DNA from: Thermoanaerobaculia bacterium
Lineage (GTDB): Bacteria; Acidobacteriota; Thermoanaerobaculia; UBA5066
Assembly: GCA_041495865.1 (NCBI GenBank)
Contig: JBGQDL010000002.1
Coordinates: 1 to 58,850 of the forward strand
Direction: 5' to 3'
DNA: 58,850 bases
Made by a program: the position numbers and the translations under genes. Of the stretch, positions 3,351-21,458 are shown piece after piece; within the stretch, counting starts at the first letter, position 1; each line of letters opens with the position of its first letter. The notes under the pieces were generated by a model, which saw nothing but the letters and a program-made list of their open reading frames with translations, was not told where the DNA came from and did no database searches.

Positions 3351-4709
3351 TTGAATCCGCTTCTCATCGAGAACGCGCTCGTCATCGGGATGACCGCGCC
3401 TTCGGACGTCACGGCCGGCGGGCACGTGCTCGTCGAAGAGGGCGCGATCACGGCTTTGCACGGCGACGCGGAGCGCGGCGCGCGGGAGATCGCGGCCGCG
3501 GGACGGCCGCTCGAGCGACGGGACGCGCGCGGCCTCTGGCTTCTGCCCGGCTTCATCCAGACGCACATCCATCTCTGCCAGACGCTGCTCCGAAACGGGC
3601 CGGACGACCTCCCGCTGCTCCCGTGGCTGAGGACTCACGTCTGGCCGGGCGAGGCGGCGCACGACGAGGCGACGCTCGAAATCTCGGCGCGGCTCGGCCT
3701 CGCCGAGCTCCTCGCGGGCGGCACGACGGCGATTCTCGACATGGGCACGGTGCGCCACACGGATGCGGTGTTCCGCGCGGCAGAAGCTTCGGGCATGCGC
3801 GTCACGAGCGGAAACGCTCTCATGGACGATCCCGCGACGAACCCGCCGGAGCTCCACGCGGGGACGGACGAATCCATCGCGGAGGTCGAGCGCCTCGCCA
3901 AGACATGGCACGGCGCGGCAGGCGGACGGCTCCGCGTGGCCTACTGCCCGCGCTTCGCCGTCTCGTGCACGGACCGCCTCCTCCGCGGCGTCGCCCAACG
4001 CGCGCGGTCGAACGGCCTTCTCGTCCACACGCACGCCTCCGAGAACGCGGACGAGATCGCGCTCGTCGCGCAGCGGACCGGAAAGCGGAACGTGGCCTAT
4101 CTCGACGACGCCGGGATTTCGGGAAGCCACGTCGTCCTCGCCCACGTCATCCACACGGACGAGGCCGAGCGCGCGCTTCTCGCCGCGCGCGGCACGACGG
4201 TGGCCCACTGCCCGTCGTCGAACCTGAAGCTGGCTTCCGGGATCTGTCCGGTTCCGGAGTACCGCGCGCGAGGCATCCGCGTGACGCTCGGCGCGGACGG
4301 CGCGCCGTGCAACGACCGGCTCGACGCGTTCACGGAGATGCGCCTCGCCGCCTTGCTCCCGAAGGTCCGCCTCGGCCCTGCCGCGCTCTCGGCCTGGGAC
4401 GTCGTGCGGATGGCGACGGCCGAAGGGGCCGCTGCGCTCGGCCTTCCCACGGGCACGCTCGAGCCGGGGCGCCGGGCCGACTTCGTGCTCCTCGACCCTG
4501 GCGCGGCCTTCGCCGAGCCGATGGCCTGGCGCGACGACCCGTATGGACCTATCGTTTACAGCATGGACCGGTCGCACGTCGTCGCGACGTTCGTGGAGGG
4601 GATTCCGCGCTACGTTCGCGGGGAGCCCTTCCCTCTCAAGCCCGCGACCGCGGAGATCGGGTCGGCCGTCGCCGCGCTCAAGCGGCGCCGGCCTGAAGAC
4701 ACGAGGTGA
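3351..4709 (+). CDS. amidohydrolase family protein (MTA/SAH deaminase or chlorohydrolase-like)
   Basis: LLPGFIQTHIHLCQT carries the HxH metal motif. ...HTHASEN... and the C-terminal DFVLLD pattern are typical of the amidohydrolase_1 family. TTG start. Confidence 0.8.
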   Translation: MNPLLIENALVIGMTAPSDVTAGGHVLVEEGAITALHGDAERGAREIAAAGRPLERRDARGLWLLPGFIQTHIHLCQTLLRNGPDDLPLLPWLRTHVWPGEAAHDEATLEISARLGLAELLAGGTTAILDMGTVRHTDAVFRAAEASGMRVTSGNALMDDPATNPPELHAGTDESIAEVERLAKTWHGAAGGRLRVAYCPRFAVSCTDRLLRGVAQRARSNGLLVHTHASENADEIALVAQRTGKRNVAYLDDAGISGSHVVLAHVIHTDEAERALLAARGTTVAHCPSSNLKLASGICPVPEYRARGIRVTLGADGAPCNDRLDAFTEMRLAALLPKVRLGPAALSAWDVVRMATAEGAAALGLPTGTLEPGRRADFVLLDPGAAFAEPMAWRDDPYGPIVYSMDRSHVVATFVEGIPRYVRGEPFPLKPATAEIGSAVAALKRRRPEDTR

Positions 4710-8095: not shown

Positions 8096-8102
8096 GGGCG
8101 CC

Positions 8103-9818
8103 ATGAAACGCGCGGCGCGAGTCGCGCCGCTTCCCATGCCTTTTTTCCAGGACCCGCCCCGGCTCACGAACCAATACGACGACGACCGGGTCCTGAGGAG
8201 CTTCCTCGCCCGGAAGCTCCCGGACGAGACACTCCAGGCCGTCGAGCCTTCGCTCCGCGAGATGGGCGCTCTCGCGGCCGGGCCTCTTTACGACCTCTTG
8301 CTCGCCGAGCCGGACGCCGTTCCGACGCTCACCGGCTGGGACGCGTGGGGCCGGCGGATCGACCGCATCGAGCCGACGCGCCTCTGGAAGGAAGTGGCTC
8401 CGCTCGCCGCCCGGATGGGGCTCATCGCGCTCGCATACGAGCGGCCGTGGGGCGCCCTCTCGCGCCTCCCGCAGATGGCGCTCGCGTATCTTTTCGAGCC
8501 CTCTTCCGGCGTTTACAGCTGCCCTCTCGCGATGACGGACGGTGCCGCGCGGACGCTGATCGTCTCCGGGAATCGCGAGCTGAAAGAGCGCGCCTACCCG
8601 CGCCTGACGAGCCGTGATCCGTCGCGGGCGTGGACCTCGGGACAGTGGATGACGGAGCGGACGGGCGGTTCCGACGTGGGCCTGTCGGAGACGGTCGCGA
8701 GGAGCACGCCCGAGGGCTGGCGGCTCTTCGGCACGAAGTGGTTCACCTCGGCCACGAGCTCCGAGATGGCGCTCACTCTCGGACGTCCCGAGGGGAACCC
8801 GCCGGGCGGGAGCGGCCTCGCTCTTTTCTTCGTCGAAACGCGCGACGCCTCCGGCGCTTTGAACGGAATCGAGATCCTCCGGCTGAAGGACAAGCTCGGA
8901 ACGCGCATGGTCCCGACGGCCGAGCTCCTCCTGAACGGAGCGATCGCCGCGCCGGTGATGGGCCTTTCCGGCGGCGTGAAGAACATCACGCCCATGCTGA
9001 CGCTCACCCGGATGTGGAACTCGGTGGCAGCCGTCGCCGGCATGCGTCGCGCGCTGGCGCTGGCGCGCGATTACGCCCGCCGGCGCGTGGCCTTCGGCGC
9101 CCCGCTCGCGGAGAAGGCGCTCCACCTCGAGACGCTCGCCGATCTCCAGGCCGTGTTCGAAGGCGCGTTTCACCTCACGTTCCGTGCCGTCGAGCTCGTC
9201 GGGCGCGACGAGGCCGAAGGCCTCGGCGAGCGCGAGGCCGCCCTCCTGCGCCTCCTGACGCCGATCGTGAAGCTCACGACGGGAAAACAGGTCGTGTCCG
9301 TCGCGAGCGAGACCCTGGAGTGCTTCGGCGGAGCCGGTTACGTCGAGAACACCGGCCTGCCGCGCCTCCTTCGCGACGCCCAGGTCCTGCCGATCTGGGA
9401 GGGGACGACGAACGTGCTCTCCCTCGACCTCCTGCGCGCGGCGGCGAAGACGGGCGGCCTCGCGCCTCTGGCCGCCGAAGTCGATCGGGCCCTTCAGGGC
9501 GTCTCGCACCCGGACCTGGCGGCCGCGGGTGACCGGGCCCGGGCCGCGGTGCGCCATGCGGAAAGCTGGCTCGCGGGCGCGAAGGACCCCGGGAGCCTCG
9601 AGGCTGGAGCCCGGCGCCTCGCGCTCACGCTCGGGCTCGCGCTCGAGACGGCGCTCCTGGCCGAGCACGCGAACTGGGCGCTCGAAAGGGAGCGGGACGC
9701 GCGTCCGGCGCACGCCGCGAGACGCCTCTCGCGCCTCCACGTCGGCCTCATCGACGACGGTTCGTCGGCAGCCGAGGCACGGGGCCTTGGGCGGGACGAG
9801 CCGGTTCCTTTGGCATAG
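8103..9818 (+). CDS. acyl-CoA dehydrogenase family protein, AidB-like
   Basis: 571 aa. WMTERTGGSDVG...GTKWFTSA...ECFGGAGYVE are motifs of the AidB subgroup of ACADs. Confidence 0.8.
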   Translation: MKRAARVAPLPMPFFQDPPRLTNQYDDDRVLRSFLARKLPDETLQAVEPSLREMGALAAGPLYDLLLAEPDAVPTLTGWDAWGRRIDRIEPTRLWKEVAPLAARMGLIALAYERPWGALSRLPQMALAYLFEPSSGVYSCPLAMTDGAARTLIVSGNRELKERAYPRLTSRDPSRAWTSGQWMTERTGGSDVGLSETVARSTPEGWRLFGTKWFTSATSSEMALTLGRPEGNPPGGSGLALFFVETRDASGALNGIEILRLKDKLGTRMVPTAELLLNGAIAAPVMGLSGGVKNITPMLTLTRMWNSVAAVAGMRRALALARDYARRRVAFGAPLAEKALHLETLADLQAVFEGAFHLTFRAVELVGRDEAEGLGEREAALLRLLTPIVKLTTGKQVVSVASETLECFGGAGYVENTGLPRLLRDAQVLPIWEGTTNVLSLDLLRAAAKTGGLAPLAAEVDRALQGVSHPDLAAAGDRARAAVRHAESWLAGAKDPGSLEAGARRLALTLGLALETALLAEHANWALERERDARPAHAARRLSRLHVGLIDDGSSAAEARGLGRDEPVPLA

Positions 9819-15315: not shown

Positions 15316-15573
15316 ATGTCACCGCACGAGACAGTGGCGGCGTTCCTGCGGGCGCGCTTTCGCCCCTCCCTTCGGAGCGGCCAGCTCGGACTCGACCAGC
15401 CACTGCTGTCGAGCGGCATCGTCGACTCCTTCGGCGTCCTGGAGCTCATCGCCTTTCTCGAGGACACCTTCCACGTCACCATCTCTCCGTCGCGCCTCGA
15501 GATGACGGAGCTCGAGACCGTCAATCGCATCGTGGCGCTGGTCGAGCGGGTACGCCAGGGAACGGGCGGCTGA
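15316..15573 (+). CDS. phosphopantetheine-type carrier protein, DltC-like
   Basis: 85 aa. LLSSGIVDSFGVLELIAFLEDTF contains the DSx Ser (Ser38). The DSFG..EL context resembles D-alanyl carrier proteins rather than the FAS ACP DSLD motif. Its stop overlaps the next ATG (TGATG). Confidence 0.75.
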   Translation: MSPHETVAAFLRARFRPSLRSGQLGLDQPLLSSGIVDSFGVLELIAFLEDTFHVTISPSRLEMTELETVNRIVALVERVRQGTGG

Positions 15574-16514
15574 TGACCTACGTCTACGATCTGACGCTCG
15601 GGCTCCCTCACACCAATCATCGTGGGCTTTCCGAGCACCTGCTGCTCGAGTACGCCGGCCACTTTCAGTGGCAATCGATCTGCGCCGCGGCCGGCGCTCC
15701 GCTTTCCAGGCTGCGGTCCACCGCCGGCAACGAGGTCTATGCCAGCTTCTACTACATCGAGGAGCGCATTCCGCCCACCGCGCCGCTCGAGTCCTTCGGG
15801 CTCGACGACACCTTGCGGTTCGCCATCGCCCTGCGGTCGTTCAAGAACATCGTCCTCGAGGGACGGCTGGTCTTCGATCGCCGCGAGCGCCTGCCGGACA
15901 CGCGGCGCTTCGAGGCGATGCTGGCAGCCACGACCGGCGACATCGCCTCGCCGTTCATCCGCTTCGCCAACATCTTCATCACGCCGGAGGGCGGCAACAG
16001 CCGACTCCGCGTGGCACCGCCGGCAGACGTCGACTTCTCGGCTCTTCCAGCCCTGCCAAACGACGACAATCCGTACCATCTGACCCGCGCCGCCAGCGAG
16101 CACGGCAGGCTCGGCGTGCTGGACGAAGCATGGTTGCCGGTCGGCGCCTTCCAGCACCGCTACGACATCGACGTCGATCGGGACACCAATGGCGCCGGTC
16201 TGGTCTACTTCGCCAACTTCGTGGCGTTCATGGACACTGCCGAGCGCCTGGCGCTGCGCACGCTTGCGCTTGCGGGCGGGGACGTCGGCGCCTCGGCCCG
16301 GCGGTCGTTGCGACATCGCCGCATCGCGTACTACGGCAACGCGGGTTTGTCCGACACGCTGCTCGTGAGAGTGACGATCCTGCGCCACCCGGCGCACCCT
16401 GACCGCCTGGGATTCCGCTATTCCGTCGAGCGCCAGGAAGACCACGAAGCGATTTGCCTTTCGGAGGCGATCAAGGCTCTTCCCATCGGCGCCTGCGAGA
16501 TCGGCGTCTCGTGA
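15573..16514 (+). CDS. double hot-dog fold protein, LnmK-like acyltransferase/decarboxylase candidate
   Basis: 313 aa in two halves. The N-terminal half has GLPHTNHRGLSEHLLLEYAGHFQW. The C-terminal half has DIDVDRDTNGAGLVYFANFVAFMDTAE, which resembles the 4HBT-type hot-dog signature. Assignment is from memory of the family and is not searched. Confidence 0.6.
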   Translation: MTYVYDLTLGLPHTNHRGLSEHLLLEYAGHFQWQSICAAAGAPLSRLRSTAGNEVYASFYYIEERIPPTAPLESFGLDDTLRFAIALRSFKNIVLEGRLVFDRRERLPDTRRFEAMLAATTGDIASPFIRFANIFITPEGGNSRLRVAPPADVDFSALPALPNDDNPYHLTRAASEHGRLGVLDEAWLPVGAFQHRYDIDVDRDTNGAGLVYFANFVAFMDTAERLALRTLALAGGDVGASARRSLRHRRIAYYGNAGLSDTLLVRVTILRHPAHPDRLGFRYSVERQEDHEAICLSEAIKALPIGACEIGVS

Positions 16515-17533
16515 GAACGCGATTCACCCGGCGACTGGCGTTCGCCGTGCTCTGGCTCGCCGTGTTCGATCAGTTCGTGCCGCGTCTGCTGCGGCGCGTA
16601 GAGAGGGAGCGCTACGAGGCCGGTAGCGTCTTCCGCTTCGAGAACTCCGACCTCTTCGCGCTGGGCCCCCTGGTGTCCTACCTGCGAGAGCATCCGCAGG
16701 GCAATCGCCGGCGAGTCGTCTTCCTCGGCAACTCGATCATCTTCGGCTACGGACTTGCCGCTGCCGAGGCGATCCCTGCCCAGTTCCAGGAGCAGCAACC
16801 GGGCACCAGGGTTTTCAACGCGGCGTTCAACAGCGCCGGGCTGGGCAGCAGCTACCTGATCGCCAAGGCCATCGTCGAGGCGGTCGACGGCTTGGTCGTC
16901 CTCATCGGCTCCCCAGGCACGGCCCATGACATGCTGCCGTCGCTGATCCCGGTCGAAGAGAGCGACCGCCGCGCCTTCGCGCTGCGTCCGCCCGATCGGA
17001 TCGAGCGCCGCCTCCAGTCGCTCGCCGGCGTCTGGCGGCTGTACGCGTACCGGTATCGACTACAGGCTGCGCTCTTCTCAACCTCCACAAGGCAGTACGT
17101 CTATTTGCACAAGCGGGACATCGTGCGCCGTCTCGTGACCCCCTTCACCTCGCCGCCTCCCCCGCCGCCGACACCCTGGCGTCCAAGCGACGACCGCGCG
17201 GTATTGCGGGCGCCCCGGTCCGCGAGCCCGCTGGACGCGGAGGGCCGGCGCCAGCTCCGACAGAACCACCAACTCTTGTGCCAGTTCGCCGATCTGGCTC
17301 GTTCCCACCGGAAACCGGCGGTGTTCGTCCAGGTGGTTGACGTCAGCGTCGAGCTCAGCGACTCGGAAGCGGCCGACTTCAACGCGATGTTCGCCCCCTT
17401 TGCCGAAACCGTCAACATCGGCTTGCCTCCGTCGCTGAGGATCGACACCATGCACCTGACGCCCCAAGGGGCGCATGCGGTTGCGGTGGCGCTCTCCCGG
17501 TACGACAGCGAGCGAGAGATCGGGCGGAGATGA
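16511..17533 (+). CDS. membrane-anchored SGNH/GDSL-like protein (DltD/AlgJ-like candidate O-acyltransferase)
   Basis: GTG at 16511 overlaps the upstream TGA (GTGA). N-terminal anchor is RLAFAVLWLAVF. VVFLGNSIIFGYG is block I, with Ser75. RIDTMHLTPQGAH is block V, DxxH. Confidence 0.6.
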   Translation: MRTRFTRRLAFAVLWLAVFDQFVPRLLRRVERERYEAGSVFRFENSDLFALGPLVSYLREHPQGNRRRVVFLGNSIIFGYGLAAAEAIPAQFQEQQPGTRVFNAAFNSAGLGSSYLIAKAIVEAVDGLVVLIGSPGTAHDMLPSLIPVEESDRRAFALRPPDRIERRLQSLAGVWRLYAYRYRLQAALFSTSTRQYVYLHKRDIVRRLVTPFTSPPPPPPTPWRPSDDRAVLRAPRSASPLDAEGRRQLRQNHQLLCQFADLARSHRKPAVFVQVVDVSVELSDSEAADFNAMFAPFAETVNIGLPPSLRIDTMHLTPQGAHAVAVALSRYDSEREIGRR

Positions 17534-18687
17534 TCTTCACCGACCTTCGCTTCCTGGTGCTGTTCGCCGCCTGCTGGGGGTGCTTTTTCACGCTGCCACG
17601 CAGCTGGCGCCCGTCCGTGCTCGCCTTCTGGGGCGCCGTCTTCTACCTGACCTACGCCGGGACTTTCCTGGCGGCGGTCCTCGTCCTCGTCGGGTTGGTC
17701 CATTCTTCCGGCCGGCGGCCGCTGGCTTGGGCCGCAGGAACAACGACAATCGCCCTGCTGGCGTATTTCAAGCTCACGCTCCGCGCCAGCCCGCTGCCCG
17801 CGACAGACACGGGTCCGGCCGCGATCCTCATCCCGCTCGGCTTCTCGTATCTCGCCTTCGAGCTGCTGCACGTGGTGATCGAGCGCCACCGCGGCCGTAT
17901 CCAGGTTCTGCGCCTGGCGGATCTGCTCGCTTTCGCGTTCTTCGCGCCGGCGCGCATCGCTGGGCCGATCAAACGCCTTCCGGAGTTCACCGCCGCGGTC
18001 CAGGCGGCCACGCTGTCGGGCGCCAACGTGTACGCGGGCGTTCTGCGTGTGCTCATCGGCCTTGCCAAGAAGCTGCTGGTGGCAGACGTCCTCGCGCTGA
18101 CCGTGGCCGAGAGCTCCTACGTCAGCACCACGCGCCACGCCTGGACGATCGTGCTCGCATTCTCCTTACAGATCTATTTCGACTTCAGCGCCTACTCGGA
18201 CATCGCCATCGGGTTCGCTCGCCTGATGGGTATCGAGCTGCCGGAGAACTTCCGGTGGGCCTATCTGGCAAGCAACATCCGCGACTTCTGGAATCGCTGG
18301 CACATCACGCTGTCGCACTGGGTGCGCGACTACGTGTTCATGCCGACCGCGAGCGCTCTCTTCCAAACCAGGCTGCGGCGGTGGCCACCGGCCATCGCCG
18401 CCATCAGCTATCTCCTCGCCTTCCTCATCGTCGGCGCGTGGCACGGCGCCACCGGGGCGTTCCTCGTCTGGGGGCTCTATCACGGTATCCTGCTCGCTCT
18501 CTTCCATTTCGTCCGCCTGAAGACGCCGGCGCGGATCGCCGATCACCCGCTCTACCGCTCGCGCGTGGCGAAGGGACTCGCCGTCGCAGTAACATTCGCG
18601 TGTGTCACGCTCGGATGGGTGCCGTTCATGCTGCCGCTGAAGGAAGCGCAGAGGCTCCTGGGGATTATGTTTGGAGCCTCGAGGTGA
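17530..18687 (+). CDS. MBOAT family membrane-bound O-acyltransferase (DltB/AlgI-like)
   Basis: 385 aa, polytopic. YSDIAIGFARLMGIELPENF...NIRDFWNRWHITLSHWVRDYVF contains the conserved MBOAT His. ATGA overlap with the upstream gene. Confidence 0.9.
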   Translation: MIFTDLRFLVLFAACWGCFFTLPRSWRPSVLAFWGAVFYLTYAGTFLAAVLVLVGLVHSSGRRPLAWAAGTTTIALLAYFKLTLRASPLPATDTGPAAILIPLGFSYLAFELLHVVIERHRGRIQVLRLADLLAFAFFAPARIAGPIKRLPEFTAAVQAATLSGANVYAGVLRVLIGLAKKLLVADVLALTVAESSYVSTTRHAWTIVLAFSLQIYFDFSAYSDIAIGFARLMGIELPENFRWAYLASNIRDFWNRWHITLSHWVRDYVFMPTASALFQTRLRRWPPAIAAISYLLAFLIVGAWHGATGAFLVWGLYHGILLALFHFVRLKTPARIADHPLYRSRVAKGLAVAVTFACVTLGWVPFMLPLKEAQRLLGIMFGASR

Positions 18688-18794
18688 GGGCGTTGCTGAA
18701 GGACGTGCTCGTTGGCTTGGCGCTCGCGGTGCTGGTGGCCGTGTTGCTCCTTTTCGCCTCGTTCGACTCCACGTTCATCTATCGTGGTTTTTAG
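18684..18794 (+). CDS. 36-aa single-TM micro-protein with C-terminal FIYRGF (DltX-like)
   Basis: GTG at 18684 overlaps the MBOAT TGA (GTGA). Translation is VRALLKDVLVGLALAVLVAVLLLFASFDSTFIYRGF*. It is not listed as a separate ORF in the track, where it is the tail of the spurious 17475..18794 ORF. Confidence 0.55.
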   Translation: MRALLKDVLVGLALAVLVAVLLLFASFDSTFIYRGF

Positions 18795-21338: not shown

Positions 21339-21458
21339 GTGCGGCACTCGGATTACTGGGTGGGCGAAAAGGACGAGGGCCAGGCGGTGACCATCAACAA
21401 GGGATTCGCTCGGGCGACCGGCGACGTTCTGGCCTGGCTCAATTCGGATGACAAGTAA
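21339..21458 (+). pseudogene. relic of a second GT2 gene (internal fragment only)
   Basis: Translates to [39 protein letters not shown]. This parallels [33 protein letters not shown] of the preceding gene. The N-terminal DxD-bearing part and the C-terminus are missing. Confidence 0.55.

Follow-up and report, generated by a model that had tools for sequence, protein, structure and literature searches.

A conserved 36-codon gene following a DltB-like MBOAT gene in a Thermoanaerobaculia contig: a likely DltX-like microprotein of a predicted carrier-protein-dependent acylation cassette

We analyzed a stretch of 58,850 nt from a Thermoanaerobaculia bacterium (positions 1 to 58,850 of contig JBGQDL010000002.1; hereafter the window) and describe in it a gene of only 36 codons, located at 18684-18794 on the + strand directly after a gene for a short, DltB-like protein of the MBOAT (membrane-bound O-acyltransferase) family. 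The conservation and the coding pattern of this open reading frame (ORF) leave us nearly certain that it is a real gene. By analogy with described systems, its product, a one-helix microprotein with FIYRGF at the very C-terminus, is quite likely to be an acyl-tyrosine shuttle working like DltX. The gene is the last of five genes (15316-18794) chained by overlapping stops and starts and encoding an acyl carrier protein (ACP), an LnmK-family enzyme, an SGNH protein, the MBOAT and the microprotein. With somewhat less confidence we favor the view that the cassette represents a widespread carrier-protein-dependent pathway of envelope-polymer O-acylation in diderm phyla (Myxococcota, Acidobacteriota, Nitrospirota, Planctomycetota and Omnitrophota), in which an LnmK-type enzyme would load propionyl or acetyl and a free microprotein would be the hallmark of carrier-fed MBOATs.

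The ORF is translated as VRALLKDVLVGLALAVLVAVLLLFASFDSTFIYRGF and is closed by a TAG stop codon (18792-18794). The last two bases of its GTG start at 18684 are also the first two of the TGA that ends the MBOAT gene (18685-18687), which makes a GTGA junction, and a GGAG element resembling a Shine-Dalgarno sequence can be read at 18673-18676 (+ strand), 7 nt 5′ of the GTG and within the conserved M-F-G codons of the MBOAT gene. To judge from its sequence, the microprotein gene is translationally coupled to the MBOAT gene. The 36-residue product has a hydrophobic stretch at approximately residues 8-27, predicted to form a single transmembrane helix, and ends in DSTFIYRGF. The codons of the terminal hexapeptide F31-I-Y33-R-G-F36 occupy 18774-18791 (+ strand); Tyr33, the proposed acyl acceptor, is encoded by TAT at 18780-18782. 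An earlier interpretation made from the letters of the window alone (the sequence-only reading) had pointed to the overlap with the MBOAT stop, had given a translation with one hydrophobic helix and a terminal F-x-Y-x-x-F, and had noted that the ORF is hidden in a spurious ORF of 439 residues. The overlap is indeed present, the translation proved exact, and the 439-residue mechanical ORF (17475-18794), which runs across the MBOAT gene, is in the same frame as the microprotein ORF.

Considering all stop-to-stop frames of at least 20 residues in the six frames of the 58.8-kb window, we found the microprotein to be the only one carrying F.Y..[FWYLIM] within its last 12 residues. The stricter pattern F.Y..F has four occurrences in the 117,696 six-frame positions of the window. 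Directly before a stop codon it occurs once, while ~0.05 such cases are expected; therefore we do not attribute the terminal F.Y..F to chance.

The ORF was compared with all other orthologous loci extending past the MBOAT stop: L003, L004, L005, L007, L012, L013 and L083-L086. These loci originate from Myxococcota, Thermoanaerobaculia and other Acidobacteriota, Nitrospira (Nitrospirota), Planctomycetia (Planctomycetota), Omnitrophota and metagenome contigs, and represent at least five phyla. Identity of the MBOAT to that of the window is 40-98% in the first six loci and 63-70% in the metagenome loci L083-L086 (three with recorded values); the closest genome is an Anaeromyxobacteraceae metagenome-assembled genome (MAG), with an MBOAT 98% identical. 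A 36-codon ORF follows the MBOAT gene in 10 of the 10 loci, so that conservation of the frame and of the terminal FxYxxF, on which the sequence-only reading had made its proposal depend, is observed throughout. The ORF overlaps the MBOAT stop as ATGA or GTGA in eight loci, starts 3 nt after the stop in L007 and starts ~130 nt downstream of it in L013. The context ATGTTYGGAG recurs in L004, L005 and L083; in L085 and L086 the stretch reads ATGTTCGGA and the base after it differs, and a GGGG variant is present in L084 and L007.

The tails of the microproteins from all loci have the form F(A/S)..(D/N/S)S(T/V)F(I/L)YRGF. F31, Y33 and F36 are invariant in alignments of 14 and of 15 microproteins, and the helix residues D7 and A15 are strongly conserved as well. 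Pairwise nucleotide differences are mostly at codon position 3 and are fewest at position 2; dN/dS is 0.16-0.5 where dS is unsaturated. The codons of the tail vary synonymously (TTC/TTT, TCG/TCC/TCA, TAT/TAC, CGT/CGC/AGA), and the stop codon, be it TAG, TGA or TAA, stays at the same site across the loci. The G+C content at third codon positions (GC3) is 0.83 in the frame of the microprotein, against 0.60 and 0.34 in the other frames, with 0.75-0.95 observed for genes of the window.

The sequence-only reading had described the ORF as uncalled and probably missed by automated annotation. This expectation was not borne out. Public contigs with identical sequence, from a JGI metagenome and from NCBI assembly GCA_041477045.1, carry a gene call of 36 residues at the exact place; the peptide is present in the public protein collection, and it is called in four more of the orthologous loci (L083-L086). 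A HMMER scan of 1.84 billion representatives produced 12 clusters (at 50% identity), nine of them with lengths of 36-37 residues and 11 with the ending F[ILV]Y[RQ][GR]F. The microprotein gene is called by pipelines but is anonymous, with neither a name nor a family.

The first gene of the cassette (15316-15573, + strand) encodes an ACP of 85 residues with a phosphopantetheine site, DSFG, at Ser38; it matches Pfam PP-binding with E-value 1.8e-06 and has weak matches to the NCBIfam DltC and ACP models. The stop of this gene overlaps the start of the next one. In locus L001 the ACP gene is called at 3787-4044, and it is conserved beside the cassette in related loci. The second gene (15573-16514, + strand) encodes an LnmK-family bifunctional acyltransferase/decarboxylase of 313 residues, the proposed loader of the carrier protein. 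It matches NCBIfam TIGR04098 with E-value 6.9e-41 and 140.3 bits, above the cut-off of 100. In the alignment with the PDB structure of LnmK (4hzo; E-value 1.8e-11) its residues Y56 and F59 stand opposite Tyr62 and Phe65 of LnmK.

The product of the third gene (16511-17533, + strand), a membrane-anchored protein of 340 residues, would be a DltD/PatB-like partner. It has no Pfam match, including to DltD (PF04914), and a profile search against PDB gave weak matches, all of them to SGNH esterases. Its AlphaFold2 model (pLDDT 87.7, pTM 0.86) has an N-terminal helix at residues 2-36. With this protein Foldseek retrieved Escherichia coli TesA with probability 1.0 (target TM-scores 0.50-0.66 in full-length alignments), PatB with 0.97 and DltD with 0.85-0.94. 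Across 32 homologues there is no variation at the residue pairs G73/S75, N103/N107 and D312/H315; Ser75, Asp312 and His315 make a candidate catalytic triad. We classify the protein, as modeled, as an SGNH enzyme.

The fourth gene (17530-18687, + strand) encodes the MBOAT, of 385 residues (Pfam MBOAT, E-value 8.8e-20), which carries no C-terminal motif of its own. Its only PDB matches are to DltB (8jem/6bug, E-value 1.7e-35), with an alignment that extends to near the C-terminus of DltB and includes the WHG motif with H305. The histidines H114, H258, H305 and H318 are invariant. The match to the NCBIfam DltB model TIGR04091 has E-value 1.6e-62 and at 212 bits is below the equivalog cut-off of 375. 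Judged by these matches, the MBOAT is DltB-like in architecture but is not an equivalog of DltB.

We propose an acyl relay for the products of the five genes because acyl-tyrosine transfer in Dlt and PatA and decarboxylation chemistry in LnmK have been described for their counterparts. The LnmK-like enzyme would decarboxylate methylmalonyl- or malonyl-CoA and charge the carrier protein at Ser38 with propionyl or acetyl. The MBOAT, with His305, would then pass the acyl group through the membrane to Tyr33 in the periplasmic FIYRGF tail of the microprotein. From the tail the group would move on to Ser75 of the SGNH protein; this membrane-anchored protein would in turn esterify a hydroxyl of an envelope polysaccharide. 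Since the carrier protein would be loaded by an LnmK-family decarboxylating acyltransferase, the group transferred is probably a short acyl rather than D-alanine; that it is propionyl is a tentative suggestion, made by analogy with LnmK.

The microprotein itself was compared with DltX by hhalign. A profile of 15 microproteins was aligned with DltX of Bacillus thuringiensis with probability 78% and 52% identity over 23 columns, comprising the helix and the tail; residues L14 and Y33 of the microprotein were paired with L23 and Y45 of DltX, which have been reported as invariant (PMC5541007). This alignment, along with the restriction of the MBOAT's PDB matches to DltB and the presence of SGNH and carrier partners, supports the earlier suggestion that the MBOAT takes part in a DltB-like relay. 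The suggestion of the sequence-only reading that the microprotein is of DltX type withstood every test run, with two qualifications: the microprotein does not belong to the Pfam DltX family at the level of sequence, and the pathway does not appear to be D-alanylation.

Several observations weigh against a DltX-like shuttle and against the proposed pathway. The match to DltX is short and of moderate probability. The microprotein and its five closest orthologues have no Pfam match at E-value ≤10, including to the DltX family PF12459/DUF3687, which is matched at 2e-21 by B. thuringiensis DltX used as a positive control; likewise, no NCBIfam match at E-value ≤10 was found for the window-type microproteins. 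One member of the library of microproteins, P0244, continues for 23 further residues after FIYRGF; this read-through, the only case of a motif that is not terminal, could be due to a lost stop codon or to a sequencing error. The presumed topology of the microprotein, with the N-terminus inside and the C-terminus outside, is suggested by analogy and by a weak charge asymmetry. In the four loci L083-L086 the cassette is not situated beside glycan genes. The relay chemistry and the target polymer are deduced by analogy with Dlt, PatA/PatB and LnmK.

We surveyed MBOATs in 80 fetched loci for the place of the motif. In ~60 of the 80 loci, those with more distant MBOATs, the motif is fused to the MBOAT's own C-terminal end, as F[ILV]Y[FY][QR]F. 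The fused proteins are ~430-500 residues long where the match covers the whole protein; the MBOATs accompanied by a separate motif peptide have 367-402 residues. It has been reported that the fused motif sits on two extra helices absent from DltB (PMC12148441).

In loci L008-L011 and L017, from Vicinamibacterales and other Acidobacteriota, we observed a one-helix peptide of 43-64 residues ending in PFVYA[GR]F and encoded just upstream of a short MBOAT gene. ACP and LnmK-like genes follow, and a GDSL/SGNH gene is present in L008, the only locus scanned for one. The upstream-type peptides that were scanned, at L008:6762-6893, L009:6763-6921, L010:6824-6982 and L011:6782-6976, match the Pfam family DUF5989 (PF19451) with E-values from 5e-11 to 1e-8. 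The microprotein of the window, shorter and encoded downstream, has no match to this family. To judge by these sequences DUF5989 is probably another family of DltX-like acyl shuttles; a literature search found no paper mentioning DUF5989.

Several loci of the survey have other arrangements. Split microproteins ending in F[IA]Y[VI]DF are encoded downstream of short MBOAT genes in MAGs of Chisholmbacteria (Candidate Phyla Radiation; L014:3547-3657), Coriobacteriia (L015:8206-8358) and Sericytochromatia (L016:5482-5649). Searches of the neighborhoods of these three genes found no recognizable carrier protein or loader, thus a split tail does not always go together with an ACP gene in the vicinity. 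There is a protein with a DltD Pfam match upstream in L016 and a GDSL protein downstream in L014. In a Polynucleobacter MAG (L036:2787-2909) a 40-residue peptide ending in PFIYQNF is encoded 1.3 kb downstream of a short MBOAT gene, with a Pfam-negative protein of 412 residues encoded in between. In L041 (motif ORF with stop at 8102) and L080 (stop at 8397) the motif segment and the MBOAT body are in different frames, and the MBOAT frame of L041 stays open up to ~805 residues; an error of assembly or a frameshift may explain the change of frame, or it may be another kind of split. Two ORFs of a cyanobacterial locus, L049, end like MBOATs, in EFIYFRF and in AFIYFRF (stops at 928 on the minus strand and at 8395), which suggests two MBOAT systems within 8 kb.

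We considered whether the microprotein gene itself could be an artefact. With a G+C content of ~68% in the window, a short hydrophobic peptide might be encoded by a chance ORF with a coincidental FxYxxF tail, and the same frame, without coding there, stays open over the MBOAT gene for 439-444 codons. However, the 36-codon ORF, its start, its tail and the site of its stop are kept in ten other loci from at least five phyla, the substitutions have a coding pattern, GC3 is specific to the frame, and the number of terminal motifs expected per window is small; we rejected this explanation on the conservation data and consider its probability practically negligible. A related possibility is that the microprotein was separated from the MBOAT by a frameshift artefact. 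Fusion of the motif in most bacterial MBOATs, as seen in our survey and in PMC12148441, makes such an origin conceivable, and L041 and L080 resemble fused genes broken by a change of frame. Still, the microprotein has a separate ATG or GTG start at the same aligned codon in assemblies that are independent of each other and represent at least five phyla, with a 4-nt overlap in eight loci and with GGAG 7-8 nt upstream of the start in several. Moreover, the fused MBOATs have ~60-100 extra residues making two helices (PMC12148441), not the one helix of 36 residues found here, and the alignment of the window's MBOAT runs to the end of DltB, itself a protein separate from DltX. An artefactual split was therefore rejected on the conservation data too, as extremely unlikely.

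Given a real microprotein, one could argue about its role. It might be a structural, assembly or regulatory subunit only, with the MBOAT handing the acyl group straight to the SGNH protein or the polymer. Conservation of D7 and A15 suggests a role in packing, and acyl transfer in the microprotein family is proposed by analogy. On the other hand, the invariant residues are exactly those of the F-x-Y-x-x-F at the extreme C-terminus, the MBOAT has no such motif of its own, and the corresponding tyrosine is a covalent carrier in DltX and PatA (PMC12148441). We regard a purely structural or regulatory role as rather unlikely. Alternatively, the cassette could perform genuine Gram-negative D-alanylation, of Dlt or Dra type, with the microprotein being DltX proper. 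It is known that some Gram-negative bacteria possess dlt-like operons (PMC5541007), the carrier protein does have weak DltC matches, and the E-value of the MBOAT against the DltB model is low. Nevertheless, no gene for an adenylating enzyme of DltA type is present in the cassette at any locus, the loader belongs to the LnmK family with a score above the family cut-off, the DltB score is far under its own cut-off, and matches to Pfam DltX and DltD are absent; D-alanylation is thus very unlikely. The acyl-tyrosine shuttle, transferring a group other than D-alanine, is the reading we prefer.

Copies of the five-gene module are also present in L003-L007, L012, L013 and L083-L086; an ACP can be recognized in every one of these loci but L013. 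In the window the cassette is surrounded by a Wzx-type glycan cluster (~11.0-29.0 kb) containing genes for a GT4-family phosphoglycosyl transferase, an epimerase, a Wzx-like flippase, several glycosyltransferases of families GT2, GT4 and GT1 and a methyltransferase, as well as an AsnB-like gene. The neighbors of the cassette in L083-L086 differ from locus to locus: an ABC exporter and PBP5; an amidase/GatC and PMT_2; a luciferase-like protein and a GT2; and a TIR-AAA protein. Since these neighbors are unrelated, we consider the module portable and not tied to one glycan cluster. For one GT2 gene of the window (20362/20428-21336, + strand) the public call starts later than the mechanical ORF (302 versus 324 residues). 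Just after it, at 21339-21458 (+ strand), there is a publicly called fragment of 39 residues with a weak GT2 match, which may be what is left of a gene.

The acyl-tyrosine shuttle was established earlier in teichoic-acid D-alanylation, with a free DltX, and in peptidoglycan O-acetylation, with a fused tail (PMC12148441). The cassette would be a third arrangement, in which Dlt-like parts with a free microprotein are combined with a polyketide-type decarboxylating loader in Gram-negative-type phyla. If the proposed pathway is true, it would be the first DltX-type relay for a group other than D-alanyl and would contradict the statement that non-Dlt MBOAT pathways are without a carrier protein and without a DltX-like microprotein (PMC12148441). 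If confirmed, it would extend the relay to a new acyl donor chemistry, would predict that polymers of little-studied bacteria from soil and sediment are modified, possibly by O-propionylation, and would give a function to hundreds of unnamed gene calls of 36 residues, and probably to DUF5989 too. The association of a split tail with the use of a carrier protein would then become a simple testable rule.

A literature search found no paper combining LnmK with an MBOAT, and a broader search for DltB, ACP and polysaccharide returned nothing relevant; a carrier-protein-fed cassette with a free microprotein in Gram-negative-type bacteria appears to be undescribed. The closest known system is Dlt, in which DltB moves D-alanine from DltC to the tyrosine of the DltX FxYxxF motif, from where it passes to a serine of DltD and on to lipoteichoic acid (PMC12148441). 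Like the microprotein, DltX has fewer than 50 residues, one transmembrane helix and a C-terminal FxYxxF (STFIYNEF in B. thuringiensis, STFIYRGF here), and its gene is likewise accompanied by genes for a short MBOAT of DltB type, an SGNH protein and a carrier protein. However, DltX has ~48 residues rather than 36, and its gene precedes dltA (dltXABCD), whereas the microprotein gene directly follows the MBOAT gene. Dlt includes DltA; the cassette has no DltA or other AMP-binding gene and has the LnmK-family loader instead. Also, Dlt serves D-alanylation of teichoic acids in Gram-positive bacteria, while the cassette is hosted by diderm phyla, for example Myxococcota and Acidobacteriota. Because a Pfam DltX match and a DltA are both lacking and the score of the MBOAT stays under the equivalog cut-off for DltB, our classification of the cassette from its genes is that it is not a Dlt system.

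The PatA/PatB, AlgI and other acyl-CoA-fed bacterial MBOAT-SGNH pathways with a fused hexapeptide share with the cassette the terminal F-x-Y-x-x-F, the pair of an MBOAT and an SGNH protein and a proposed relay from acyl-tyrosine to acyl-serine (PMC12148441). PatA auto-acetylates the tyrosine of its fused tail, and PatB takes the acetyl group from an acetyl-tyrosine hexapeptide (PMC12148441). While in these pathways the motif is fused, in the cassette it is carried by a separate gene product, the MBOAT is without the extra C-terminal helices, and there are a dedicated carrier protein and loader. The loading step has its counterpart in LnmK/LnmL of leinamycin biosynthesis, where LnmK decarboxylates methylmalonyl-CoA and transfers propionyl to a carrier protein via Tyr62 (PMC11350588). 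The loader of the cassette keeps the equivalents of Tyr62 and Phe65, and its gene adjoins that of a small carrier protein; but LnmK/LnmL act in polyketide beta-branching, whereas the cassette, with malonyl or methylmalonyl as a putative substrate, is predicted to act in acylation of an envelope polymer.

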